Notes under the pieces: model-generated
Databases searched by the model: none
What the model was told of the DNA's origin: nothing
What the model saw: the letters and a program-made list of their open reading frames with translations, nothing else
Shown here: one piece after another, positions 754-37,700 of the stretch
Position numbering within the stretch: the first letter of the stretch is position 1
How the letters are laid out: each line of letters opens with the position of its first letter
Translations under genes and position numbers: made by a program
Origin: Acidobacteriota bacterium
GTDB taxonomy: Bacteria; Acidobacteriota; Thermoanaerobaculia; UBA5066; Gp7-AA6
Reading direction: 5' to 3'
NCBI GenBank assembly: GCA_040005945.1
Contig: JBDTXY010000001.1
Coordinates: 1-41,593 of the forward strand
Length of the DNA stretch: 41,593 bases

Positions 754-823
754 GTTTTCAGTTTTCAGCGTGTCTCGTTCCCGGTTTGCACTGATAACTG
801 ATAACTGACGACGGATAACTGAC
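754..823. repeat. Heptad-periodic inverted repeat between the pilin and downstream genes
   Basis: GTTTTCA GTTTTCA G (754-768) is complementary at 13 of 15 positions to CTGATAA CTGATAA C (791-805). The right side continues with further 7-nt-phased CTGAnnn words to 823. The 18-mer at 789-806 matches 30523-30540 at 17 of 18 positions. Confidence 0.65.
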
Positions 824-13720: not shown

Positions 13721-16700
13721 ATGAGACAGCGTCCGGTTACGACTTCAAGAGGCCTCGTAGGTTGGGCGGCGCGCCATCGTGCGGCGGCCACCTTCCTGCT
13801 GCTGTTCATGATGGCCTCACCCGCCACGCCGGATGATCGCCAGCTGCTCCAGGCCAATGCCGGAGCGTCGGCGGACGTTCTCCTGATCCTGGACTCCTCG
13901 AACTCCATGAACTTCGACTTCACCAATTTCTATCGATTGCCCGCGTACATGGACGATTTCGTCTACCCGGAAGGCACGACGGCGGGGGCCGAGGGGTCCA
14001 AGCTTGGCATCGCCAAGAGCGTGCTCCGCGAGGTCATCACGAAGACCACGGGCGTCAATTGGGCGTTCTCCTATTACCGCAATCCCAAACAGACCCTGGG
14101 CGCCGCCAACGCCGACACCGGTCTCCTGGATCCCTCGAAGCTGGGTGAGCCGATCGGGGGCGCCGTCAACAAGAACGACTACCTGGAGAATGGCGGGCTC
14201 GAGTGGTTCTACCTGGCCGAATGCATCGTCAGCTCGGCGGGCAGCAACGGAGGCTGTCTCGGGCTGCCGAGCGCGGTCTTCGACCCGGTGGAGTATCCCG
14301 ACGTGCAGGCCGGCCGGTTTCTGCAGCTCGGCCACAAGGTCATGCGCAACTACACACCCGACCCGCGGTATCCGTATCCCGGTGCGACCCCCGGCACCTG
14401 GCGCGGCTCCTTCGGGCCGCACTCTCAGAAACCCGGCTTCACCAAGAACAATCCCGAGGGACTGGTCGTCTACCGCAACCCGAACAAGCCGGGCTTCGAG
14501 CTCCGAATGACCGCCGTGAATCATCCGTACGGTGACCCGTTTATCTTCGTCAAGGTCGAAGAGTTCGCGGCGCCGGCCGTCCCCACGGTCACTCCGACGA
14601 CGACCCCGACGGTCACGGCGACGCCCACCTCGACCAGCACGCCGACGCTGACGAAGACCCCGAAGACCAAGACTCCGACGCCGACCCCTCCTCCGACCAA
14701 CACGCCGACGATCACTCTGACACCTTCCCTGACGCCGACGAAGACGCCGGTGACACCCACCCTGACGCCGTCGAAAACCTTCACGGCGACCAAGACCTTC
14801 ACGGCGACGCCGATCACCCCGACGAACACGCCGACGAAGACCCTGACGCCCACCAACACCTTCACGCCGACGAAGACCTTCACGGGCACGCCCATCACCC
14901 CGACGAACACGCCGACGAATACCCTGACGCCCACGCCCACCGTCCCGACGAACACGCCGACGAAGACCTTCACGGCGACGCCGATCACGCCGACGAAGAC
15001 GCCGTCGAACACCAAGACGCCGACACCGATCACCCCGACGGACACGCCGACGAAGACCTTTACGGCGACGCCGGTGACGCCCACGAGCACGAAGACCCCC
15101 GTGCCGACGAATACCCAGACGGCGACGCCCCTCCCGGCGACGAACACGCCGACCAAGACGCCGACGGTCGTGACGTCCACGCCGACGAAGACTCCGACGA
15201 TCTACATTCCGCCGACGACTGGTGGAGGCGCGATGCCCCCGCAAAGCCTGCTGCCGGTGATCGCAAACTGGCTTCCGCCGGCCGTTCGAGGTCTTCTGGC
15301 CATGGCTCCGCCGCCGCCGCCGATGCAGACGCCCGGCCCCTGCGCCGGCATCCTCATCACGCCGAAGGCCGACTGCGCGCCGTGTCCGTGGGAAGCTCTG
15401 GATTCGCCTCCGGGCACCAATCCCGGATATCCCCACTACCTCTGCGCGTACCAGGACGCCAACGGAGACAAGGCGATCAACCCGACCGAGAAGGCTCCTT
15501 CGAACCTCATTCCGCTGGACCCGAACCTGCGCGGATTCGACGATCCGCAGGCGGACCCCGATACGACGTTCGTCTCCACGAGCAAGATTGCGTTCATCAA
15601 GTATCGCCGGGGCGACCAGTTCAGCTTTCCGCCCAAGTACACGGCGGGCGACGACCTCACCGGCAATCCCCCGTGGGGATCGTGCATCGACGGCACCAAC
15701 AAGAAGGCCTGCCCGGTGTTTCCGGACTACGACGCGGACGGCAAGGCAGACACCCCGTGCGTTCCCGTCACCGCCTGCGATCGCCACAACCAGGGCATGT
15801 ACGCCGCCCTGTACGACGCCGGTTCCGCCCCGCCGACGACCGGCCCGTATCCTGGGGTGGGAGTGGCGGGGTTGAACTACTCGCGGCCGTATCAGCAGTA
15901 TCCGCTGGACGCTTTCGCGGCCAAGTCCTGCCCGCTGGATATCCCGAGCTGCGACCCGACGACGTGGGACTGCGGCGGCTTCGCGCACTTCAACGGGTTC
16001 ACGGCGAGAGACGGCACGCCCTATTCCGGCGTCGCGCCAGATGACTTGTCGGTGAACTCCCCCAACAACGGCGGCTCGCCCTACGCAACCGGCACCGAAC
16101 CTCCGGCTCCTGAGCGGTGGCCGGTCGTTCCGTTCAAGCGCGATTGGGATCCGTACAGGGCCACCGACTATCCGGCCGGAGGTCCTTCCGCCGACGAATC
16201 CATCAAGAAACTGCTGCGGTTCGTGTCGTCCATCGTGACCTACGATTCCGCCGCGCCGGACGTCACCACGGCCTACCGCCTCGCAGAGGACGCCAAGGAA
16301 GTCGTCGCGACAGCCTCGCAAACCCCCGTGGCTGGAGCGCTCGAGGACGCCTACAACTACTTCAAGGACAGCGTCTTCGCGCCGTCCACGGTCCCGGATC
16401 CGGCGGTGGACTGTCGAAACTTCATCATCGTCTACGTCACCGACGGCCTCGACGAATGCAACTCCAACCCGTGTACGGGAGGGCGGACCGGCCTCGGGGT
16501 CGCGGGCGACCTGAAAGACCTGCTGCTGCCCGAGAGCGCGCCGGGAGCTCGCGCGGCCGCCAACGCGGTCGACCCGACCATTCCCATCCGCGGAATTCCC
16601 GTCAACGTCGTGGCGATGGGAGACCCGACCGTCTTCACGAATCTGAGCTGCATCGCCGACAACAGCGGCGGTACCTTGTACGCCGCGACCGACCGCAGCA

Positions 16701-30472: not shown

Positions 30473-30542
30473 AGTTCACAGTCTTCAGTTCACAGTTCTC
30501 AGTTTCAAAACTGAAGACTGATCACTGAAAACTGATAACTCC
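30473..30542. repeat. Heptad-periodic inverted repeat between convergent genes (likely bidirectional hairpin)
   Basis: Left arm: AGTTCAC AGTCTTC AGTTCAC AGTTCTC AGTTTCA (30473-30507). Right arm: AAACTGA AGACTGA TCACTGA AAACTGA TAACTCC (30508-30542). CAGT and ACTG cores recur every 7 nt. A perfect 12-bp pairing joins 30479-30490 with 30509-20. Confidence 0.75.
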
Positions 30543-31792
30543 TAATCAAAACTTGCGCGCTCGACCAAGAGCGTGGGCGATCCGGACAGGAACGGCAACG
30601 GGAAGAAATGGCGGTCGTCCGAGACGGCCGTCACCCGGCGCAACAGCTCGGAGAGGCGGCCGGCGGCTCGCGCTCCGCCCACGGGCGCTTGCGCGCGGCC
30701 CGCGGCCACCGAGACGCCGGTGAACTCGATCTCGAAGCGGTCGCTCTCCAGGTCGACGCGAACCGGCGCGGTCAGGGCGGCGGCGAAGAGCCCGCGCTTG
30801 ACCGCGGCCAGCATCTCGGCGGGAGGGATGGGTTGGCGCGACTCCAGAAACAGGCGCCGCGGCCGGACCCGGGGCGAGGCGCGAAACGACGAACGCACAC
30901 CGTGGCCGGTCGCGCGAAGGCCCGAGCGCTTGGCCGAGCGCAGATCTTCCAGCCGCTCTGCCAGTGCGCCGTCCTGCACGAGAACGATCCGGCGCGTGGC
31001 CACCCCTTCCCCGTCGAACGGGGCGTCCGGGGACGCATCGTCGGCGATCGTGATCGCGGGAGAGGTGAAGGGGCCTCGGGAGAGCCACCGCGGGGGGCGC
31101 CGGTTGCTGAAAATCGGAGCCAGCGCCGCCAGCAGCGCCGCGGATACCCCGGGGTCCAGCAGCCACTGGCCGCTGGCAAACGGAGCGGGGCGATCGGATA
31201 GGGGCAGCGTCGTCGCGTCCGAGAGGCGCCGCGCGAGCGCATCGATCTCGGCAGCCCCGTGCCACCGGAAGGGAATCCGGGACTCGTGGCCCCGGGCGCC
31301 GCGGCGCGCCATGGCCACCGCGACCCCGTCCCGGAAATGTTGCGACTGCGCCACGTCGAGCCCCGCGCCGTTCCAGATCCGCTCTTCGACGCGGCCGTGC
31401 CGCAAGGACAAGGCGCAGAGCTCCGCTTCGGCGCGGGACGTCGACGCGAGCGTCGGCGCGAGCGCGTCGAAGAGATCCGAGGGCTCCTCGAGGGGAAGCG
31501 GCGGGGGAGCCTCCGCCCTCGCGCGAGGCCAATCCGGAGGCTCTTCGGTTGCGGCTGGAATGCGCAGGGCCTCCGGGAGCGCTCGGAACAAATCGCCGGG
31601 ATGGCATGCGGCGGCGAAACGCAGGCTGCCGCCCTCGGACCACCGCGCGGCCCAGCCTTCTTCTCGGCGCCACGACCGGCGGCGCAATGCGCTCGAGGCG
31701 TCGATCTCACGGGACTCCGCGGTCTTTTGGTAGAGCTCCCAGGCGCCGGGGGCCCGGCGCTGCAGCTCACGCTGCAGATCCTCGGGAGTCAC
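30542..31792 (-). CDS. PmbA/TldE-like protein (TldD/PmbA family)
   Basis: GTG 31792 overlaps the tldD stop (GTGA). The C-terminal half (ATGHGVRSSFRASPRVRPRRLFLESRQP...RGLFAAALTAPVRVDLESDRFEIEFTGV) fits the PmbA_TldD fold pattern, and the gene is paired with tldD upstream. The ORF-track extension to 32458 is read-through. Confidence 0.75.
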   Translation of the reverse strand: MTPEDLQRELQRRAPGAWELYQKTAESREIDASSALRRRSWRREEGWAARWSEGGSLRFAAACHPGDLFRALPEALRIPAATEEPPDWPRARAEAPPPLPLEEPSDLFDALAPTLASTSRAEAELCALSLRHGRVEERIWNGAGLDVAQSQHFRDGVAVAMARRGARGHESRIPFRWHGAAEIDALARRLSDATTLPLSDRPAPFASGQWLLDPGVSAALLAALAPIFSNRRPPRWLSRGPFTSPAITIADDASPDAPFDGEGVATRRIVLVQDGALAERLEDLRSAKRSGLRATGHGVRSSFRASPRVRPRRLFLESRQPIPPAEMLAAVKRGLFAAALTAPVRVDLESDRFEIEFTGVSVAAGRAQAPVGGARAAGRLSELLRRVTAVSDDRHFFPLPFLSGSPTLLVERASFD

Positions 31793-33135
31793 AAGGCCGA
31801 CCGGACCGCCACGCGGCGGATCAACACGTCGGGAGCCTCTCCTTGCACCGGCACGACCTGGCCTTCCCGGGCGCACCACCCCAGGGCGCGGCACGCGCGG
31901 ACCTGCCGTCCGATCACGGGCTCGATGTTGCGGAGCGTCGCGATCACCTCGCCCGCGATCATGCCCGGACCCAGCTCGTCGGAGAGCACGCCCCGGCGGA
32001 GCCGGCGCGCCCGAGGAAAGTGAAGGCGAAACGTGCCGCCCGCCAGGTCCGCCGAGCCTCCCCGAAATTGGTCGATCCAGATTCCGTTCTGCAGCCGGCG
32101 CGCCATCTCTTCCCGCGTCGCGCCGCCCGCGCCCACCACCACGTTGGATCCTCGCGGCAGCGGGGCCTCGGGCGCTCCGGATCGGCGGCCGTGGCCGGTC
32201 GAGCCCGCGGTCCCCGCGTGCGCGCGATCCGTCAGGCGTGCGCCGACGGTCCCGCTCTGCAGCAGGCGAACCGCCCGCGGCGCGGTGCCTTCGTCGTCGC
32301 GCTCGTATCCGCCGAACAAGTCCAGCCGGCCGGCGTCGTCGGCGACGTCGAGCTCCGCCACGGCCACGCGCGCCTGGGGCAGAGTCGCCAGGGGCGAGCC
32401 GTCCGCGCCGGCCTCCAGCGCGTGGGAGAGGATCTCGTGGAACAGCACCGCGGCGCATCCCTCCGCCAGCACGACGTCGGCCTCCCCGTCGGGCACGGGG
32501 ACGGGCCGATCGCGCGGCGCGGCCGCCGCCGAGAGGACGGCCTTCAACTCATCGGCCGTCGCCTCGGAGTCGGGGGCGTGAAACGCGAAGGGCCGCTGCT
32601 CGTCGCCCAGGCGCGACGCGGCGGTGAACCGGCCCTCCAGGGACACCACGCGGCGCATCGCCGTGGAGGCGGGCCGTCCGGGCGACACCACGCGGCGTTC
32701 CGTGGTCCGGATGCGGAACCGGAAACTGTGGCGGGGCGCGTGGCGCGCGAAGATCCCGATCAGGCGGCGGATCCAGCGGGCCGTCTCGGTGCCGGGCTCC
32801 TCGTCCGGAAGGGGCGCGTCGCGGGACGTCCGGATCGGAAGCGAGGCGCGCCCGGCCGCCGACCGCAAGGCGCGCACGGCTTCGCGAACCGAAGCCTCGT
32901 CGGTTCCTGGAACGTGGACGAGCTGCTCCTGCGATCCGGCTCGCCACCGGGCGCTCGCGCCTTCTTCGCGCCGGACGGCCAGGTCGCAGATCTCGCCGTC
33001 GCGCCATTCCAGCGTCGTCTCCCGCAGACTCTCGCCGAAGACTTCGGCCAGCTCGCCCGGACGCGTCGCGAGCGGCTCGAGCCAGCGGGCGATTTCGGAT
33101 TCATCCCAGTGCACGCCCGTGCAGTGTAATAACAT
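31789..33135 (-). CDS. tldD: TldD-like metalloprotease
   Basis: HExxxH motif in AAVLFHEILSHALEAG. Also GTAPRAVRLLQSGTVGARLTD, STGHGRRS, PLPRGSNVVV, and the C-terminal GGTFRLHFPRARRLRRG. The start could be a few codons downstream (GTG at ~33114). Confidence 0.85.
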   Translation of the reverse strand: MLLHCTGVHWDESEIARWLEPLATRPGELAEVFGESLRETTLEWRDGEICDLAVRREEGASARWRAGSQEQLVHVPGTDEASVREAVRALRSAAGRASLPIRTSRDAPLPDEEPGTETARWIRRLIGIFARHAPRHSFRFRIRTTERRVVSPGRPASTAMRRVVSLEGRFTAASRLGDEQRPFAFHAPDSEATADELKAVLSAAAAPRDRPVPVPDGEADVVLAEGCAAVLFHEILSHALEAGADGSPLATLPQARVAVAELDVADDAGRLDLFGGYERDDEGTAPRAVRLLQSGTVGARLTDRAHAGTAGSTGHGRRSGAPEAPLPRGSNVVVGAGGATREEMARRLQNGIWIDQFRGGSADLAGGTFRLHFPRARRLRRGVLSDELGPGMIAGEVIATLRNIEPVIGRQVRACRALGWCAREGQVVPVQGEAPDVLIRRVAVRSAL

Positions 33136-33146
33136 CCCGGGCGATC

Positions 33147-33425
33147 ATGGGTCTGGCCGATACGAAGAAGGATTTTGTGGCCGGAAAGACGGCCCGGGGC
33201 CTGGCCTCCCGAAAGCTCTTCGCCGAGAAGAGTCCGGGAGCGCTGCGCGCCACGGTGCTCGCCGCCCTGGAGGCCGAGTCCGAGAAAGAGCGCACCCTGG
33301 ACGAAGAGGCTCGCCGCATGATGGAGGGAGCCCGCCAGGAGATCGCCGCCGGCCGCGTGGACGGTCACGAGCTCTTCCGCCGGATCCGCCGCAAGCTCGC
33401 GGAGCAGCGAGGGATCGTCCTGTGA
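33147..33425 (+). CDS. Small DUF507-like protein
   Basis: 92 aa, charged and helical. EKERTLDEEARRMMEGARQEIAAGRVDGHELFRRIRRKLAEQRGIVL resembles the C-terminal part of DUF507 proteins, as recalled from memory. Third-position GC is consistent with coding. Confidence 0.55.
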   Translation: MGLADTKKDFVAGKTARGLASRKLFAEKSPGALRATVLAALEAESEKERTLDEEARRMMEGARQEIAAGRVDGHELFRRIRRKLAEQRGIVL

Positions 33426-33427
33426 AA

Positions 33428-33494
33428 GGTGACAGGTGGAAGGTGACAGGTGACGCTCCTGGTCCCGGTCACCTGCCACCCGTCACCTGACACC
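33428..33494. repeat. Heptad-periodic inverted repeat (hairpin) upstream of the carboxylase operon
   Basis: Left arm: GGTGACA GGTGGAA GGTGACA GGTGACG (33428-33455). An 11-nt loop follows. Right arm: GGTCACC TGCCACC CGTCACC TGACACC (33467-33494). GGTG and CACC cores pair in register, with about 22 Watson-Crick pairs of 28. Confidence 0.75.
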
Positions 33495-33501
33495 CTCCGC
33501 T

Positions 33502-35046
33502 ATGACTCTCGAAAAACGGATCGCCGACCTCGAGGCCCTGCGGGAAACCCGGCTGGAGGGAGGCGGGCGGGAGCGGGTCGAGCGCCAGCATCGCGAGGGC
33601 AAGCTCACGGCGCACGAACGCGTCGAGCTGCTGCTGGACCCGGGATCGTTCTTCGAGCTGGACCCCTTCGTGGTGCACCGGTGCCGCGACTTCGGCATGG
33701 AGAAATCGGCGATCCCGGGCGATGGCGTGGTCTGCGGCCCCGGCACGATCGAGGGACGCCCGGTCTACGTGTTCGCCCAGGACTTCACCGTCTTCGGCGG
33801 CTCCCTGTCCGAGTCCAACGCCGACAAGATTTGCAAGGTCATGGATCTGGCGGTGCAGAACGGCGCTCCGATCATCGGCTTGAACGATTCGGGCGGGGCG
33901 CGCATCCAGGAGGGCGTGGTCTCGCTGGCCGGGTACTCGAAGGTCTTTCTCCGCAATACGCGAGCCTCCGGCGTGGTGCCCCAGATCTCGGCGATCCTGG
34001 GACCCTGCGCCGGCGGCGCCGTCTACTCGCCGGCGATCACCGACTTCGTTTTCATGACGGAAAAGACGTCCTATCTCTTCGTCACGGGTCCCGACGTGAT
34101 CCGCACGGTCACGCACGAGGAGGTAACCAAGGAGGACCTCGGAGGGGCCCGGACGCATTCCAGCGTGTCCGGCGTGGCCCACTTCGTGCGCGCCAACGAC
34201 GCGGCGGTTCTGCTGGGCATCCGGGAGCTGCTCTCGTTCTTGCCCGCCAACAATCTGGATTCCCCTCCGCACCGGGAGTCGCGGGAGCCGCTCTCCGGCG
34301 CCTCCGATTTGAACGGATTCATCCCCGAGGAGCCCGATCGGCCCTACGACATGGCCGATCTGGTGCGGCGCGTGGCGGACGAGGGCGTGTTCTTCGAAGT
34401 CCACGCCGGGTTCGCGCGCAACATTCTGGTCGGATTCATCCGCCTGGCCGGACGGGTGGTGGGCGTGGTCGCCAATCAGCCCATGTACCTGGCGGGCGTG
34501 CTGGACATCGACGCCTCCGTCAAGGGCGCGCGCTTCGTGCGCTTCTGCGACGCGTTCCAGATTCCCTTGCTCGTGTTCGAAGACGTCCCCGGCTTCCTGC
34601 CGGGAACCCAGCAGGAGTACGGCGGGATCATCCGCCACGGGGCCAAGCTGCTCTACGCCTTCGCGGAGGCCACGGTCCCGAAAGTTTCGGTCATCACGCG
34701 CAAGGCGTACGGCGGCGCGTACTGCGTCATGCTCTCCAAGGACCTCGCGACCGACTTCAACTTCGCCTTCCCCACGGCCGAGATCGCCGTGATGGGGCCG
34801 GAAGGAGCGGTCAACATCCTGTATCGGCGGGAGCTGCCTCCCGACGCGCCTCCCGAAGCCCGCGCCGCCAAGGTCGCCGAGTACGCCTCCAATTTCGCGA
34901 ACCCGTACATCGCGGCCCGGCGGGGATACGTGGACGACATCATCGAGCCTTCCGAGACCCGCGCCCGTTTGATCGCCGCGTTCCGTGCGCTGGAGGGCAA
35001 GAGAGTCGCGTTGCCGAAGAAGAAGCACGGGAACATTCCCCTCTAG
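33502..35046 (+). CDS. Acyl-CoA carboxylase carboxyltransferase (beta) subunit, propionyl-CoA carboxylase / methylmalonyl-CoA carboxyltransferase type
   Basis: Motifs: [99 protein letters not shown]. Confidence 0.95.
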
Positions 35047-35060
35047 CCGGAAAGCACCCA

Positions 35061-35092
35061 GTCGTTAAACGTGAAACGTAAAACGTCAAACG
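35061..35092. repeat. Left heptad-repeat arm flanking the four-helix-bundle ORF
   Basis: GT CGTTAAA CGTGAAA CGTAAAA CGTCAAA CG: four 7-nt-phased AAACG words. Bases 35070-35092 are complementary to 35484-35506 at 21 of 23 positions. Confidence 0.8.
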
Positions 35093-35472
35093 ATTTGAGA
35101 ACAATCCGATCGTTCGGGCACGAAAAGTTGGATGTCTTTAAGATCTCCCGACAGCTCGTGATTGACCTTTACCGGGAGACCGCAAGGCTTCCATCGGAAG
35201 AGAAGTTCGGCCTGGTATCGCAGATCCGTCGATCAGCAATTTCGATTCCTGCCAACATTTCTGAGGGAGCGGCGAGGCGGTCAAAGAAAGAATTCACCCG
35301 TTTTCTGCTCACTGCCCGCGGCTCATCGACCGAACTCCGGCTCTTGCTGGACATTGCCCACGCCACCGGCTTGCTGGCCGATGAAGCCTATTTGGCTCAT
35401 GACGGAACGCTCAATCGAATCTTCTCAATGTTGAACGGTCTAATCCGGCATTCAGACACTCGCGCGACGTGA
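35071..35472 (+). CDS. Four-helix-bundle protein (23S rRNA intervening-sequence protein / Avd family)
   Basis: LDVFKISRQLVIDLYRETARLPSEEKFGLVSQIRRSAISIPANISEGAARRSKKEFTRFLLTARGSSTELRLLLDIAHATGLL shows the family pattern (...QIRRSA.SI..NI.EG..R.S..EF..FL..A.GS..E......A). In-frame TTG 35095 (MRTIRSFGHEKLDVF...) is an alternative start that would place the whole ORF inside the loop of the flanking stem. Confidence 0.85.
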   Translation: MKRKTSNDLRTIRSFGHEKLDVFKISRQLVIDLYRETARLPSEEKFGLVSQIRRSAISIPANISEGAARRSKKEFTRFLLTARGSSTELRLLLDIAHATGLLADEAYLAHDGTLNRIFSMLNGLIRHSDTRAT

Positions 35473-35475
35473 TGT

Positions 35476-35507
35476 CCGTTTCACGTTTTACGTTTGACGT
35501 TTCACGG
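35476..35507. repeat. Right heptad-repeat arm flanking the four-helix-bundle ORF
   Basis: C CGTTTCA CGTTTTA CGTTTGA CGTTTCA CGG: four 7-nt-phased CGTTT words, the reverse complement of the left arm. It ends 3 nt before the biotin carboxylase ATG. Confidence 0.8.
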
Positions 35508-35509
35508 CC

Positions 35510-36997
35510 ATGCGCCTTCTCGTAGCGAACCGCGGCGAAATCGCAGTCCGGATCTTTCGCGCGTGCCGCGATCTGGGGATCGAGACGGTCGCGGTCTTTT
35601 CGGACGCGGACCGCGAGTCGCCGCACGTGACGATGGCGGATCATGCCGTTCGACTAGGACCCGCTCCCGCGCGCGAGAGCTACCTTTCCATTCCCGGAAT
35701 TCTCGCGGCGGCGCGCAAGACGGGGGCCCGGCTGGTGCATCCGGGCTACGGCTTCCTGGCCGAGAACGCGTCCTTCGCGCGGTCCTGCGGGGAGGCGGGG
35801 CTGGTGTTCGTGGGGCCGACGCCCCAGGCGATCGAAGCCATGGGGTCCAAGACCGGCAGCCGGCAGCTGATGGAAAAGGCCGGGGTGCCCGTGGTGCCGG
35901 GGATGCTCCGCCCGGCCGGCAGCGCGGCGGAATTGAAGGCGTTCGCGGCGAAGGCGGGTTATCCCATCCTGCTCAAGGCCTCGGCGGGCGGCGGGGGGAA
36001 GGGGATGCGCCGGGTGGACGCCGCGTCCGATCTGGAGGCCGCCTTTACGCGCGTTGCGGCCGAAGCCCAGTCGTCCTTTGGCGATGCCTCCGTGTACGCC
36101 GAAAAGCTCATCGAGCGGCCGCGCCACGTCGAGGTGCAGATCGTCGGGCACCCTCGGGACGGCGTCGTCGCCGTGGGGGAACGGGAATGCAGCATTCAGC
36201 GGCGCCACCAGAAAGTGCTCGAGGAGTCCCCGTCGCCGGCTGTGGGTCCCGCGCTGCGGGATCGCCGCGGCGCCACGGCGATCGCGGCGGCGAAGGCGGT
36301 CCAATACACATCCTGCGGCACCGTCGAATTCCTGTTGGCGCCGGATGGGTCATTCTACTTTCTGGAGATGAACACGCGCCTCCAGGTGGAGCATCCGGTC
36401 ACGGAAGAGGTCTGGGGGGTCGACCTGGCCGCGGCCATGATCCGGATCGCGCTCGGGGAGAAGCTGCCGTTCGCAGCGGAAAATCTGCGGCCCCGCGGCC
36501 ACGCCATCGAATGCCGCATCTACGCCGAGGACGCGCGCCGCGGCTTTTCACCCTCGCCCGGCCGCATCGCGGCTCTGCGCCTGCCTCAGGGGCCGGGGAT
36601 CCGGAACGACATGGGTGTCGAGGCGGGATCGGTGGTGCCGATCGACTACGACCCGATGCTGGGAAAGCTCGTGGTGCACGGCCAGGATCGCGCGGCGGCG
36701 ATGGCGCGGCTGTCCCGCGCGCTCTCGGAGTACGAGATCGCCGGTGTGGATACCACGCTGCCTTTGTTTCGCGCGCTCTGCGCCGACCCGGACTTCGTGC
36801 GCGGGGATTGCGACGTCCAGTGGCTGGACCGTCGTTTGTCCGAGGGTCTGCTGGGTGCGCCCGCTCCCGCGGCGTCCGTGATTTGGCTGGCCGCGGTCGG
36901 CCTGGCGCAGGAGCCGGGCGCGGGACCCGCGGAATCCTCGGCGCAAGCCTCCTCGTCCTGGAGACACGCGGCGCGGCGCGAGCTGCTCCGGAGCTGA
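35510..36997 (+). CDS. accC: Biotin carboxylase subunit of acyl-CoA carboxylase
   Basis: Motifs: MRLLVANRGEIAVRIFRACRDLGIETVAVFSDADRES, HPGYGFLAEN, KASAGGGGKGMR, ECSIQRRHQKVLEESP, FLEMNTRLQVEHPVTE. It carries no biotinyl domain, which is encoded separately downstream. Confidence 0.93.
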   Translation: MRLLVANRGEIAVRIFRACRDLGIETVAVFSDADRESPHVTMADHAVRLGPAPARESYLSIPGILAAARKTGARLVHPGYGFLAENASFARSCGEAGLVFVGPTPQAIEAMGSKTGSRQLMEKAGVPVVPGMLRPAGSAAELKAFAAKAGYPILLKASAGGGGKGMRRVDAASDLEAAFTRVAAEAQSSFGDASVYAEKLIERPRHVEVQIVGHPRDGVVAVGERECSIQRRHQKVLEESPSPAVGPALRDRRGATAIAAAKAVQYTSCGTVEFLLAPDGSFYFLEMNTRLQVEHPVTEEVWGVDLAAAMIRIALGEKLPFAAENLRPRGHAIECRIYAEDARRGFSPSPGRIAALRLPQGPGIRNDMGVEAGSVVPIDYDPMLGKLVVHGQDRAAAMARLSRALSEYEIAGVDTTLPLFRALCADPDFVRGDCDVQWLDRRLSEGLLGAPAPAASVIWLAAVGLAQEPGAGPAESSAQASSSWRHAARRELLRS

Positions 36998-37527
36998 TGC
37001 GACGTTTCACGTTCATTCACCGTGGCTCGGCCGATCCCGAAGAGATCGCGATCTCGCTGGAGGGATCGCGTCGCGTTCTGACCCGCGGGGGCAAGAGCGA
37101 AGGCGCGGCTGTCGCGCGGCTCGGGGACGGCCGCCTGTCACTCCTCTTGGACGACGGGCGACAGATTTGCGGCCGGGTGCTCCCGGGGCCCGATGGGGTG
37201 GCGGAGGTCGTGACCGGCAACTCGCGCGACAAGATCTCGCTGGCCGAGCCGCTCCGGGACCGGATCGCGCACGCGATTGAGGCCGGGGTGGGTGGCCCCG
37301 CCGAGGAAGAGATCCGAGCGTTGATGCCCGGGCGGGTCGTCGAGGTTCACGTTGCGGAAGGGAACCGGGTCGCCTCCGGCGCTCTGATTCTGGTGCTGGA
37401 GGCGATGAAGATGCAGAACGAGATCCGCACTTCCCGGAGCGGAACCGTCGCTCGGATCTGTGTCGAGGCCGGAAAGGCCGTCGACGGCGGGTCGCTTCTG
37501 GCGGTGATTCGGTCCGAGCCCGCCTGA
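36997..37527 (+). CDS. Biotin carboxyl carrier protein (biotinyl/lipoyl domain)
   Basis: ATG 36997 overlaps the upstream TGA (TGATG). The C-terminal domain MPGRVVEVHVAEGNRVASGALILVLEAMKMQNEIRTSRSGTVARICVEAGKAVDGGSLLAVI contains the EAMKM biotinylation motif. The ORF-track extension to 35494 is read-through. Confidence 0.85.
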   Translation: MRRFTFIHRGSADPEEIAISLEGSRRVLTRGGKSEGAAVARLGDGRLSLLLDDGRQICGRVLPGPDGVAEVVTGNSRDKISLAEPLRDRIAHAIEAGVGGPAEEEIRALMPGRVVEVHVAEGNRVASGALILVLEAMKMQNEIRTSRSGTVARICVEAGKAVDGGSLLAVIRSEPA

Positions 37528-37700
37528 CCCGGGTCGCGGCTCAGCAGAGGCCGAGGCTCCCTTGACTGACCGGCCGGTTATCCAAAAATCCGGACTTCCA
37601 TCCAACCCGCTGGTACTTTTAAATTCGGCATTCGTCCCTTTTTTTCCGCTTTCCTATTGCATACCAATTAGTTAGAGTTCGGGAATTCGTCGGGAAATCT

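Follow-up and report, generated by a model that had tools for sequence, protein, structure and literature searches.

A four-helix-bundle gene bracketed by inverted heptanucleotide arrays within an acyl-CoA carboxylase operon of an Acidobacteriota bacterium

The stretch of DNA analyzed here, referred to throughout as the window, comprises 41,593 nt from an Acidobacteriota bacterium (assembly GCA_040005945.1, contig JBDTXY010000001.1, positions 1–41,593, forward strand). It contains an acyl-CoA carboxylase operon with genes for the carboxyltransferase (CT; named acyl-CoA carboxylase subunit beta on the NCBI contig), biotin carboxylase (BC), and biotin carboxyl carrier protein (BCCP). A small cassette lies between the first two (Table 1). 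It consists of an open reading frame (ORF) for a four-helix-bundle protein of the 23S rRNA intervening-sequence (IVS) family, here called IVP, between two arrays of 7-nt repeats; the ORF and its two flanking genes share a strand, which places it in sense orientation. An earlier note on this DNA had described an ORF of this family in the loop of a heptad-periodic inverted repeat, and all the elements that it listed were found where it had placed them, including the borders of the intergenic region: CT ends at 35046 and BC starts at 35510.

Table 1. Genes and repeat features of the carboxylase operon and of the other heptad hairpins in the window
Feature	Coordinates	Strand	Evidence and remarks
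Weaker ORF-less heptad pair, (GTTTTCA)2 ... (ACTGATA)4.7	754..822	.	ACTGATA is a rotation of TAACTGA
ORF-less heptad hairpin	30473..30540	-	Directly 3' of the stop of a minus-strand PmbA/TldD-like ORF (30542-32458); Tandem Repeats Finder (TRF) period 7, both halves
ORF-less heptad hairpin	33422..33495	+	Between DUF507 gene (stop 33425) and CT start (33502); TRF period 7
Acyl-CoA carboxylase carboxyltransferase (beta) subunit gene, left host flank	33502..35046	+	PF01039, E 6e-192
Left arm, four heptads plus CG (CGTTAAA CGTGAAA CGTAAAA CGTCAAA CG)	35063..35092	+	TRF
Four-helix-bundle (23S rRNA IVS protein/Avd-like) gene	35071..35472	+	PF05635, TIGR02436, 2GSC, AF2, pN/pS
Right arm, four heptads plus CG (CGTTTCA CGTTTTA CGTTTGA CGTTTCA CG)	35477..35506	+	TRF
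Biotin carboxylase gene, right host flank	35510..36997	+	PF00289, PF02786, PF02785
Biotin carboxyl carrier protein gene	36997..37527	+	PF00364; first codons contain 13-nt arm-like match 37001-37013

The ORF has two candidate starts, a GTG at 35071, inside the left arm, and a TTG at 35095, directly after it, and stops at 35472; the TTG has the same position relative to the arm as the called start in the orthologue at locus L162. The family assignment made in the earlier note holds, the predicted protein being a genuine full-length member that passes the cut-offs of both PF05635 (E = 1e-31, 109.7 bits against 33.8, profile positions 1–106 of 106) and TIGR02436 (E = 7e-31, 106.6 bits against 24). 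PF05635 was the sole domain found with Pfam, NCBIfam, and PADLOC, and no nuclease, transposase, or polymerase domain was detected. The family is large, with 17,686 cluster representatives (50% identity) matching the window protein at E ≤ 1e-3; to our knowledge "four helix bundle protein" and "S23 ribosomal protein" are the only annotations given to its members, for which we know of no function.

By sequence, the protein matches the crystallized family member in PDB entry 2GSC (E = 1.6e-21, 41% identity). An AF2 model (pLDDT 92.7) has four long helices, and Foldseek aligned it with 2GSC at a TM score of 0.88 and an rmsd of 0.8 and with 2RLD at a TM score of 0.78; the predicted fold is an up-down four-helix bundle like those of these two proteins. 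Both 2GSC and 2RLD contain five chains per assembly, and from these chains and from Lin et al. 2006, as cited in PMC4990558, we infer that the window protein may form a homopentameric ring. The family motif GxxRxxxSxxxNxxE has been described (PMC3936711), and the window protein contains RxxxSxxxNxxE (RRSAISIPANISEG); in an alignment of 30 sequences R46, N54, E57, and G58 are invariant and S50 is nearly so, all five residues being present here. With pN of 0.18–0.37 against pS of 0.67–0.89 in comparisons of orthologues, the gene is, judged by its substitutions, under purifying selection and still functional.

In each arm Tandem Repeats Finder detected a period of 7 and 4.3 copies. The right arm, the reverse complement of the left, ends 3 nt upstream of the BC start codon, and the pairing of 35070–35092 with 35484–35506, as previously noted, is complementary at 21 of 23 positions. 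Weaker complementarity extends outward to 35050 and 35519 (79% over 43 nt) and includes the BC ATG. Matches to the pattern CGTN3ACGTN3ACGT, of which 0.04 would be expected, number eight and are confined to the two arms. The predicted RNA fold of 35040–35525 has an energy of −171.7 kcal/mol (z = −3.55; 0 of 100 shuffled sequences as stable), and in the minimum-free-energy structure the arm stem closes the cassette. The cassette has a G+C content of 52.7%, against 66.7% and 70.3% in the flanking genes, and by this measure its composition is foreign.

A promoter scan revealed no promoter-like site in the cassette and a terminator scan no convincing intrinsic terminator; the one weak terminator-like match coincides in part with the right arm, and shuffled sequence yields matches of this kind at least as often. 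A search of 33000–37700 against Rfam at a permissive threshold returned no rRNA match and no family for the cassette, the only hits being chance microRNA-like matches, all within the hairpin at 33422–33495. PADLOC defence models gave zero matches.

This hairpin is one of three ORF-less heptad-armed hairpins in the window, all of which the earlier note overlooked. Its sequence reads GTGAAAG GTGACAG GTGGAAG GTGACAG GTGAC / GTCAC CTGCCAC CCGTCAC CTGACAC, with a predicted RNA fold of −45.1 kcal/mol (z = −4.97). The hairpin at 30473–30540 folds at −36.4 kcal/mol on the minus strand (z = −5.0), and the pair at 754–822 has z-scores of −1.65 on the plus strand and −3.14 on the minus strand. At the DUF507/CT junction, about 10 relatives carry heptad hairpins with other heptamers and 14 are empty. 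The four heptad pairs of the window are built from four different heptamers. With three such hairpins beside it, the cassette looks less like a single oddity than like one representative of a family of elements.

An 11-mer of the right arm had been reported to recur at 37001, at the BC/BCCP junction. The recurrence is real, and the match in fact covers 13 nt (37001–37013), but it is probably a coincidence, since it has neither an inverted partner nor a heptad array; about 0.19 chance recurrences are expected in the window for any arm 11-mer. The match lies inside the BCCP coding sequence (ATG CGA CGT TTC ACG TTC, encoding MRRFTF), and the N-terminus is conserved as protein in relatives with other codons. 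The idea that it represents a third arm or the remnant of one was dropped, given the conserved BCCP codons and the lack of partner and array.

The CT/BC junction was compared in 25 close relatives with CT identities of 83–91%. The site proved unoccupied in most of them: 17 of the 25 have a spacer of −4 to 68 nt without a cassette, and the junction is empty in the sister genomes of the window as well. An IVP cassette is present in five relatives and another insert in three; other inserts accepted at this junction include hicAB and a GIY-YIG gene. The closest IVP homologues (67–74% identity) occupy the same site in the same synteny (PmbA/TldD, DUF507, CT, IVP, BC, BCCP, and TonB receptor), and every arm of the same-site cassettes is a variant of CGKRAAN, the left and right arms changing together. 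Comparison of occupied with empty junctions (e.g., L164 with L087) gave no clear target-site duplication, there being at most an ambiguous CG at both borders. Independent repeated insertions, suggested by the patchy distribution on the tree, were dropped as an explanation because every arm conforms to CGKRAAN and this junction is also where the nearest homologues lie. The related heptamers and the same-site homologues point to one old insertion and many losses. The cassette thus looks like the product of a single old insertion with vertical inheritance and repeated loss, and not like a recent arrival, descent and loss being read here from heptamer relatedness and synteny and not from a dated tree.

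Heptad arms are a widespread property of the family. Self-matches of at least 10 at a lag of 7 occur in 51% and 59% of IVP flanks against 2% of controls, and no other lag exceeds 4%. In a census of the loci (1.01 Mb), 130 arrays had a period of 7, compared with 0–19 for periods of 5, 6, 8, 9, and 10, and the period-7 signal is tied to IVP genes over more than 100 loci. Complementarity of at least 12 was found between the cognate arms of 56 of 68 metagenomic loci and in 22 of 408 non-cognate pairs (p = 1e-31), so that arms are, as the earlier note had asked, strongly enriched around other copies of the family; the heptamer itself differs by lineage across these loci. Inverted heptad pairs enclose an IVP gene in 35 instances, most with a gap of 380–450 nt; arms typically comprise about four units, with a median stem length of 29 nt, and about 15 of 20 copies on viral contigs have such arms. 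The inverted stem is not universal, since two of four cyanobacterial plasmid copies have direct or unrelated flanking arrays in its place. The sole description of heptad arms around the family that we found in the literature is a strain-level one in Coxiella, and an earlier one is possible, most subscription journals lying outside the search.

Contexts of family members are very varied and include rRNA, cas operons, and viral contigs, and the IVP gene is co-oriented with its upstream neighbor in 36 of 40 cases and its downstream neighbor in 42 of 44 (at least 90% of loci). A special link between cassette and biotin carboxylase was considered and is at most a possible curiosity; the pairing was seen in two phyla, and at the other 80-odd loci no biotin carboxylase lies nearby. 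The proportion of IVP pairs that share a heptamer decays with protein divergence, from 53% at 70–90% identity to 36% at 60–70%, 5% at 50–60%, and 2% at 40–50%, which fits common descent of ORF and arms. Sharing tracks IVP relatedness even where the flanks are unrelated (e.g., L015 and L022), and 36% of distant arrays have the heptamer found in the IVP arms of their own locus, compared with 4.6% across loci. The correspondence does not amount to a strict protein-to-heptamer code: at the CT/BC junction, IVPs with 64% identity share a heptamer and others with 67% identity differ.

Nothing in the arms marks their pairing as selected in sense RNA over DNA. Mismatches in 58 cognate stems comprise 64 G.U (G.T) and 57 A.C, with no excess of G.U, and the folding energies of arm mini-hairpins are equal in sense and antisense (−38.4 and −38.1 kcal/mol, n = 59, p = 0.87), so that the pairing could be maintained at the level of DNA. 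The RNA folding and RNase III cleavage of this stem discussed below are proposed by analogy.

We favor, as reasonably probable, the view that the cassette is a selfish insert of IVS type, co-transcribed with the operon, whose stem of approximately 30 bp is probably cut by RNase III. The first reading of the locus is partly supported: the family, the ORF within a stem as in 23S IVSs, the empty sites, and the enrichment of arms stand, the RNA folding and cleavage stay an analogy, and the recurrence at 37001 is most likely a coincidence. The view builds on the anatomy of the cassette, its family membership, its insertion polymorphism and co-orientation, the complementarity maintained through sequence turnover, and purifying selection. 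The element would comprise a small functional four-helix-bundle gene together with its arms, each an array of about four heptanucleotide repeats, inverted relative to each other. It would have entered the short CT/BC spacer in an ancestor of this Thermoanaerobaculia-like lineage, by a mode of movement that can be conjectured only, and would then have been inherited vertically and lost in most descendants. Given the sense orientation of the cassette and the absence of a promoter-like site within it, the operon transcript probably includes it. There the arms would pair into a stem of about 30 bp that encloses the ORF and overlaps the BC start, and RNase III would cut this stem, as it does that of the same element in 23S rRNA. 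The cut would remove the insert and divide the operon mRNA into upstream and downstream messages, with whatever effect on subunit expression this might have, and insertion would thereby be tolerable. Since the arms are tandem repeats, they could pair in several registers, and the stem would outlast the gain or loss of units; structure could thus be kept while the heptamer sequence drifts and homogenizes. Against this view, concerted change of the units in both arms is hard to achieve by point mutation and selection alone; this pattern is suggestive of active copying, for which the IVS-cassette model has no mechanism.

The element might instead act as DNA, its heptad arrays serving as terminal repeats in the form of DNA hairpins or repeated binding sites. 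A pentameric IVP would recognize the heptads of its own lineage and assist another enzyme in moving or copying the element, the ORF-less hairpins would be non-autonomous derivatives (as REPs are to RAYT, or MITEs to transposons), and the RNA stem would be a by-product. We consider this combination unlikely, though far from negligible. The absence of strand asymmetry in the pairing speaks for it, as do the presence or absence of both cassette and ORF-less hairpins at orthologous sites, the dependence of the heptamer on IVP relatedness despite unrelated flanks (53% to 2% with divergence), and its sharing by distant arrays of the same locus (36% against 4.6%). The IVP arms of Xanthomonas use GGGAATC, a heptamer also present at about 186 arrays of that genome (PMC4692102), and the homologous structures are five-chain assemblies, with Avd forming part of a nucleic-acid-bound RNP. 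However, the four heptad pairs of the window have four different heptamers, which one protein with one specificity cannot serve, and IVPs with 64–67% identity at this junction have the same or different heptamers. Nor does the protein have a recognizable nuclease, transposase, or polymerase domain, the junction has no clear target-site duplication, and a strong sense bias within operons would be unexpected of a purely DNA-level element. A reading of the ORF as the Avd accessory gene of a diversity-generating retroelement (DGR), with the repeats as its template region, is scarcely credible and was rejected: a PHROG match ("Avd protein of DGR," E = 3.7e-9) and structural likeness to Avd (4DWL) and a DGR RNP (8UB7; TM about 0.75) are offset by a score of 22.7 bits on the NCBIfam Avd model NF033474, whose cut-off is 80, and by nearest structures, 2GSC and 2RLD, that are non-DGR proteins. 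The neighbors are carboxylase subunits, DUF507, PmbA/TldD, and a TonB receptor, and neither the window nor the orthologous contigs contain a linked reverse transcriptase.

The stem could also benefit the host, as a processing or translation-control site that uncouples the CT and BC cistrons; the IVP ring may then bind RNA heptads, as TRAP binds its triplet repeats, and tune the downstream gene. Both the proximity of the right arm to the BC start, which the extended stem covers, and the long retention of a protein under purifying selection are consistent with such a device, as are the dimensions of the typical arm and the median stem (about four units and 29 nt) and the location of an IVP cassette directly 5' of biotin carboxylase both here and, in an unrelated phylum, between accB and accC of Xanthomonas. 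We nevertheless hold it to be improbable, because most close relatives run the same operon without a cassette and with a spacer of at most 68 nt, and because hicAB and a GIY-YIG gene occupy the same junction, as expected of a permissive site for selfish inserts; the varied contexts of the family (rRNA, cas operons, viral contigs) and the absence of biotin carboxylase near any of the other 80-odd loci likewise argue against it. Finally, heptanucleotide repeats are, according to the literature cited on them, the commonest long simple repeats in many bacteria, and the arms might be chance microsatellites beside an ordinary small gene. To this we give almost no credence: it is contradicted by the pattern count (8 matches against 0.04), by a signal specific to period 7 and tied to IVP genes at more than 100 loci, and by cognate arms far more complementary than non-cognate ones.

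Beyond the IVS-type selfish insert favored here, it is possible, and we suggest it tentatively, that PF05635 genes and heptanucleotide arrays constitute one widespread class of intergenic element, defined by structure and not by sequence, in which the arm-ORF-arm cassette is the autonomous form and ORF-less hairpins and arrays are derivatives or products. The class would include the cyanobacterial STRRs, the GGGAATC repeats of Xanthomonas, and the paired heptanucleotide sites of Geobacter. On this reading, a pentameric Avd-like protein would help to make, copy, or maintain 7-nt arrays, and the excess of heptanucleotide repeats in bacteria would share one cause with the origin of ORF-containing rRNA IVSs.

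Among the approximately 100 loci examined, most copies have arms of about four 7-nt repeats, the sequence of which changes between lineages while period and complementarity are kept. With the arms, the PF05635 family has a nucleic-acid partner that defines it and a biology that can be tested, and the arms link three separate observations: 23S rRNA IVSs with ORFs; genes of the family inside unrelated operons, such as cas operons and the acyl-CoA carboxylase operon described here; and the high numbers of heptanucleotide repeats in bacteria such as Xanthomonas, cyanobacteria, and Geobacter. Xanthomonas, a culturable and genetically tractable organism, has in accB-XCC0516-accC a locus with a solved protein structure. 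For annotation, the arms are a simple rule for recognizing cassettes, and a warning that an insert may split otherwise tightly coupled operons.

Several known systems share parts of this architecture. The Correia (NEMIS) elements of Neisseria are small, inserted in operons, and co-transcribed, and form an inverted-repeat hairpin that is cut by RNase III, altering the stability of the flanking mRNA; they have sequence-conserved terminal repeats, a TA duplication, and no ORF. The arms here, unlike those of Correia elements, are defined by period and complementarity and not by sequence, and the four heptamers of the window differ from terminal repeats conserved within a genome. In REPtrons, a small protein gene (RAYT) lies between inverted short repeats, further copies of which are dispersed over the genome with no such gene attached. 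RAYT is an HUH tyrosine transposase and REPs are sequence-specific palindromes, whereas IVP is a four-helix bundle without a known catalytic motif and its heptamers differ between sites; the bracketed gene encodes PF05635 as its sole domain and no HUH (Y1) transposase. The Avd proteins of DGRs have a homologous fold, their solved homologues have five chains, and Avd works bound to nucleic acid; unlike Avd systems, this locus has no reverse transcriptase and no template or variable repeats, and its protein falls below the Avd model cut-off.

The arms themselves are heptanucleotide tandem repeats (STRR-like), that is, intergenic tandem arrays of a 7-nt unit, and may be compared with the cyanobacterial STRRs, GGGAATC of Xanthomonas, TAACTGA of Beggiatoaceae, and the paired "global regulator sites" of Geobacter metallireducens, which likewise form intergenic arrays of 2–6 or more units with variable copy number. 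Convergent pairs on opposite strands are frequent among these (PMC4692102; PMC2700814), and the Xanthomonas genome has GGGAATC at about 186 arrays, including 70 such pairs (PMC4692102). In the literature searched, the known repeats are described without an associated gene and are read as G-quadruplexes, regulator sites, or translational signals; those here bracket a specific gene family. The crystallized archetype of that family is XCC0516 of Xanthomonas campestris (PDB 2GSC; 41% identity, TM 0.88), whose homologues, like this cassette, occupy the spacer immediately 5' of biotin carboxylase (accB-IVP-accC) between four-unit inverted heptad arms, with the right arm abutting the ATG. They differ in phylum, in their heptamer (GGGAATC), and in having BCCP and not CT as upstream neighbor; the literature searched on XCC0516 and on the GGGAATC repeats draws no connection between the two.

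Closest in plan are the ORF-containing IVSs of 23S rRNA (Leptospira, Coxiella burnetii, Brucella, Azospirillum lipoferum), which encode the same protein family in the loop, have a long stem formed by the inverted repeats on either side, lie in sense orientation in the host transcript, and contain heptamers in the stem whose copy number varies between strains. The cassette differs from them in lying between two protein-coding genes for enzyme subunits, in the mRNA of an operon, and not in helix 25 or 45 of 23S rRNA. Excision by RNase III has been demonstrated for the rRNA copies and would apply to the cassette by analogy; the Coxiella IVS contains GACAGAT heptamers in a stem cut by RNase III in vitro (PMC4990558). 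Its ORF is decaying, whereas the ORF of the cassette is under purifying selection. The A. lipoferum copy (L170), located within the 23S gene, has heptad arms of its own (AGAGGAC/GTCCTCT) and is a genuine 23S IVS.

The small ORF between the carboxyltransferase and biotin carboxylase genes (the CT/BC junction) lies in a metagenome-assembled genome assigned to the Acidobacteriota, whose closest relatives are metagenome-assembled genomes of Thermoanaerobaculia. It is bracketed by inverted arrays of 7-nt units, as the earlier note had described; the coordinates, the period, the complementarity of the arms at 21 of 23 positions and the fold were confirmed as written. Within the 41.6 kb, the periodic pattern is confined to the two arms of this cassette (8 matches versus 0.04 expected). 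In the predicted RNA fold of 35040-35525 the arm stem closes the cassette (z -3.55), and a weaker outer stem segment covers the biotin carboxylase ATG. The GC content is 52.7%, against 67% in the context, and sequence scans of the cassette identified neither a promoter-like site nor a convincing terminator nor a match to an Rfam family.

The ORF covers the PF05635 profile end to end (E 1e-31) and also matches TIGR02436 (E 7e-31), which upholds its assignment to the 23S rRNA intervening-sequence (IVS) protein family (hereafter IVP); it scores far under the cut-off of the model for Avd, the DGR accessory homologue. Its nearest solved structure is Xanthomonas XCC0516 (2GSC; E 1.6e-21). The AlphaFold model (pLDDT 92.7) is a four-helix bundle, superposing on 2GSC with a TM of 0.88 and, more distantly, on Avd. 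Among the CT/BC-junction orthologues, pN is 0.18-0.37 versus a saturated pS of 0.67-0.89; by this measure the protein is under purifying selection, which indicates a functional gene and not a decaying passenger.

Features of the window and of compared loci (L-numbers denote fetched relatives or homologues)
Feature	Sequence	Position	Strand	Details
ORF-less heptad pair, weaker	window	754-822		GTTTTCA/ACTGATA
Imperfect long tandem repeat, apparently inside coding sequence	window	14581-15165		periods 45, 81, 90; unit CACGCCGACGAAGACCTTCACGGCGACGCC...
ORF-less heptad pair, 3' of PmbA/TldD-like ORF stop	window	30473-30540	-	AGTTCAC/AAAACTG; z -5.0 on that strand
DUF507 gene	window	33147-33425	+	
ORF-less heptad pair, DUF507/carboxyltransferase spacer	window	33422-33495		GTGACAG; -45.1 kcal/mol, z -5.0
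Carboxyltransferase gene	window	33502-35046	+	
Left arm	window	35063-35092		CGTTAAA CGTGAAA CGTAAAA CGTCAAA CG; period 7, 4.3 copies
Small ORF	window	35095 or 35071 to 35472	+	125/133 codons; PF05635, TIGR02436
Right arm	window	35477-35506		CGTTTCA CGTTTTA CGTTTGA CGTTTCA CG; period 7, 4.3 copies
Biotin carboxylase gene	window	35510-36997	+	
BCCP gene	window	36997-37527	+	
CT/BC insert	L101	5555-6018		hicA/hicB-like toxin-antitoxin pair (translation reading, no HMM)
CT/BC insert	L104	5735-6061		GIY-YIG-like small gene, flanking GTCATCC(G/T)GAGCCGC repeats (translation reading, no HMM)
CT/BC insert	L094	5637-6854		405-codon gene (translation reading, no HMM)
accB-accC IVP homologue, Xanthomonas	L198	2981-3435		GGGAATC-type inverted arms
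accB-accC IVP homologues, Xanthomonas	L199, L200	2920-3375		GGGAATC-type inverted arms

In nearly all of 80 metagenomic loci encoding relatives at 38-59% identity, tandem repeats of 7 nt precede the gene and their reverse complement follows it, with lineage-specific heptamers (GTGAATG, GGGACTC, CCTTTAG, TAGCAAC, GGGGTCA and others). Among the 68 loci having both flanks, 51% of the upstream flanks and 59% of the downstream ones had a lag-7 self-match of 10 or more, versus 2% of 247 control windows; none of the other lags from 4 to 12 exceeded 4%. Complementarity scores of at least 12 were obtained for the cognate arms of 56 loci, as opposed to 22 of 408 combinations of non-cognate arms (p 1e-31). 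Heptad arms are thus common around other family copies. The stems have a median of 29 nt, about four units, and their mismatches tend to recur in heptad phase. An IVP gene lies inside each of 35 inverted heptad pairs, mostly with a gap of 380-450 nt, and one seemingly gene-less pair encloses a more divergent four-helix-bundle ORF; on viral contigs, heptad arms accompany about 15 of 20 IVP copies. Inverted arms are not universal: a Pseudanabaena plasmid copy is flanked by direct arrays and a Nostoc plasmid copy by unrelated ones. On the former plasmid (P. galeata; L168 1300-2000), the IVP gene has cas6 on one side and cas4 on the other, with about 17 units (AAAGCTA) upstream and (AAAGCCA)n downstream, and looks as if it sits within a single heptad array. 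Three loci (L020, 517-876 and 1402-1758; L011; L072) carry two tandem IVP genes; between them are several hundred bases in which heptad arrays abound.

Across 1.01 Mb of fetched loci we counted 130 period-7 arrays versus 0-19 for periods 5, 6, 8, 9 and 10, and 77 of the 130 lie at most 200 nt from an IVP gene. The heptamers of distant arrays match the IVP arms of their own locus in 36% of cases, versus 4.6% across loci. Where flanking genes are unrelated, by a crude test that scores short contigs as unrelated, the heptamer is the same in 53% of comparisons at 70-90% IVP identity, falling to 2% at 40-50%. By eye, L015 and L022 differ in context yet encode IVPs 71.6% identical and share GTGAATG. 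Since the heptamer tracks IVP relatedness across unrelated flanks, the arms travel with the ORF.

Three further heptad inverted pairs in the window lack an ORF; all are intergenic, and no two share a heptamer. Of the relatives, 14 have an empty DUF507/carboxyltransferase junction and about 10 a heptad hairpin there, with a heptamer that differs per relative and in several belongs to the CGKRAAN group of the IVP arms. The (ACTGATA)4.7 array at 790-822 corresponds to TAACTGA in rotated form; direct repeats of that heptamer are reported to be abundant between genes in Beggiatoaceae, cyanobacteria and some Bacteroidetes (PMC4679880).

Searching species-representative genomes for the carboxyltransferase yielded 25 relatives (83-91% identity). 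In 17 of these the CT/BC spacer is -4 to 68 nt, without the cassette (e.g., TAAAGCGATG), so that the empty sites envisaged in the earlier note do exist; five carry an IVP cassette and three another insert (L101, L104, L094). L102 3783-5160 was grouped with these last three. The spacer appears permissive for selfish genes. On the carboxyltransferase tree cassette-bearing genomes are scattered, and the sister genomes of the window are empty. The closest homologues of the window IVP anywhere (67-74% identity) are all at this junction, with identical synteny. All cassettes at the junction have heptamers that fit CGKRAAN, differing by one or two substitutions (CGTGAAA in the window, CGTRAAR in L161, CGTNAAA in L098, CGGGAAA in L164, CGGAAGA in L162 and L092, CGTGAAC in L088, CGTGAAT in L102, CGGGAAT in L090). 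Within every orthologue the two arms share one variant heptamer; the arms have therefore changed in concert, keeping their complementarity. From these comparisons we read the cassette as one old insertion that would have descended vertically with repeated loss, and not as recently mobile. The empty junction of L103 (3333-3368) retains AAACGCAAAACGTAAAAC, then a small palindrome; it reads TGAAACGCAAAACGTAAAACCGGTCAACGGCTTGACC, two to three CGTAAAA-like units plus the palindrome, and looks like the arm remnant expected after cassette deletion. Other empty junctions (L100, 2640-2709; L089; L091; L093; L105) contain tandem 8-nt or 14-nt units with the stop codon first (TGAAGCTG TGAAGCTG TGAAGCCG ...), apparently from repeated duplication of the stop codon and following bases.

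The element may live in host transcripts, which would fit its sense orientation in operons, its want of a promoter-like site and the stem of about 30 bp adjoining the downstream start codon. Flanking genes are on the IVP strand in 36 of 40 cases upstream (p 2e-7) and 42 of 44 downstream (p 1e-10), and in 19 of 24 clear cases purines predominate on the sense strand of the upstream arm. RNase III would cut the arm stem, as it cuts within the heptamer-bearing stem of the Coxiella 23S IVS (PMC4990558), removing the insert and splitting the operon mRNA; by this analogy we infer such cleavage for the window cassette. Tandem-repeat arms have several possible pairing registers, and the stem thereby persists when units are gained or lost. 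Selection on the sense RNA gave no signal, either in mismatch type (64 G.U versus 57 A.C in cognate stems) or in stability (sense versus antisense, p 0.87), and an action of the arms at the DNA level therefore stays a serious rival to the transcript-borne element. That all units of both arms change in concert suggests some copying mechanism.

The recurrence at 37001 of the right-arm 11-mer GACGTTTCACG, also pointed out in the earlier note, is real and extends to a 13-nt match (GACGTTTCACGTT, 37001-37013). The match lies within the first BCCP codons (MRRFTF), an N-terminus conserved in relatives with other codons, and three codon differences from the relatives create it. By chance, any 11-mer of the arms would recur about 0.19 times in the window. 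With neither an inverted partner nor a periodic array, the match is probably coincidental, although it may derive from a short conversion tract of the arm.

Several components have been described before: IVSs that contain an ORF and have inverted repeats at their ends; the protein family, along with its structure and homology to Avd; members inside cas loci (PMC3936711); three heptamers that precede the Coxiella ORF (PMC4990558); and heptanucleotide repeats in several phyla. In Xanthomonas, GGGAATC is reported to be unexpectedly abundant, with about 186 arrays, of which 70 form convergent pairs, an association with a gene not being made (PMC4692102). Three points seem new, none being found stated in the full texts searched, with subscription journals mostly outside: heptad-periodic inverted arms of variable sequence as a general family property, the shared architecture of operon and rRNA copies, and the bracketing of XCC0516 by GGGAATC repeats. 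That the IVP genes and heptanucleotide arrays form a single system is a tentative idea, which we consider rather unlikely. XCC0516 homologues lie between accB and accC, with an upstream arm GGGAATC GGGAGTG GAGAATC GGGAATC and a downstream arm ATTCCCC ATTCTCG ACTCCCT ATTCCC that adjoins the accC ATG. In two unrelated phyla, an IVP cassette thus immediately precedes a biotin carboxylase gene; the other 80-odd loci do not show this neighbor. ORF-containing 23S IVSs share their anatomy with the window cassette, and a copy on an Azospirillum lipoferum chromid, inside the 23S rRNA gene, has heptad arms (AGAGGAC/GTCCTCT), so that true rRNA IVSs and the operon cassette represent one kind of element.
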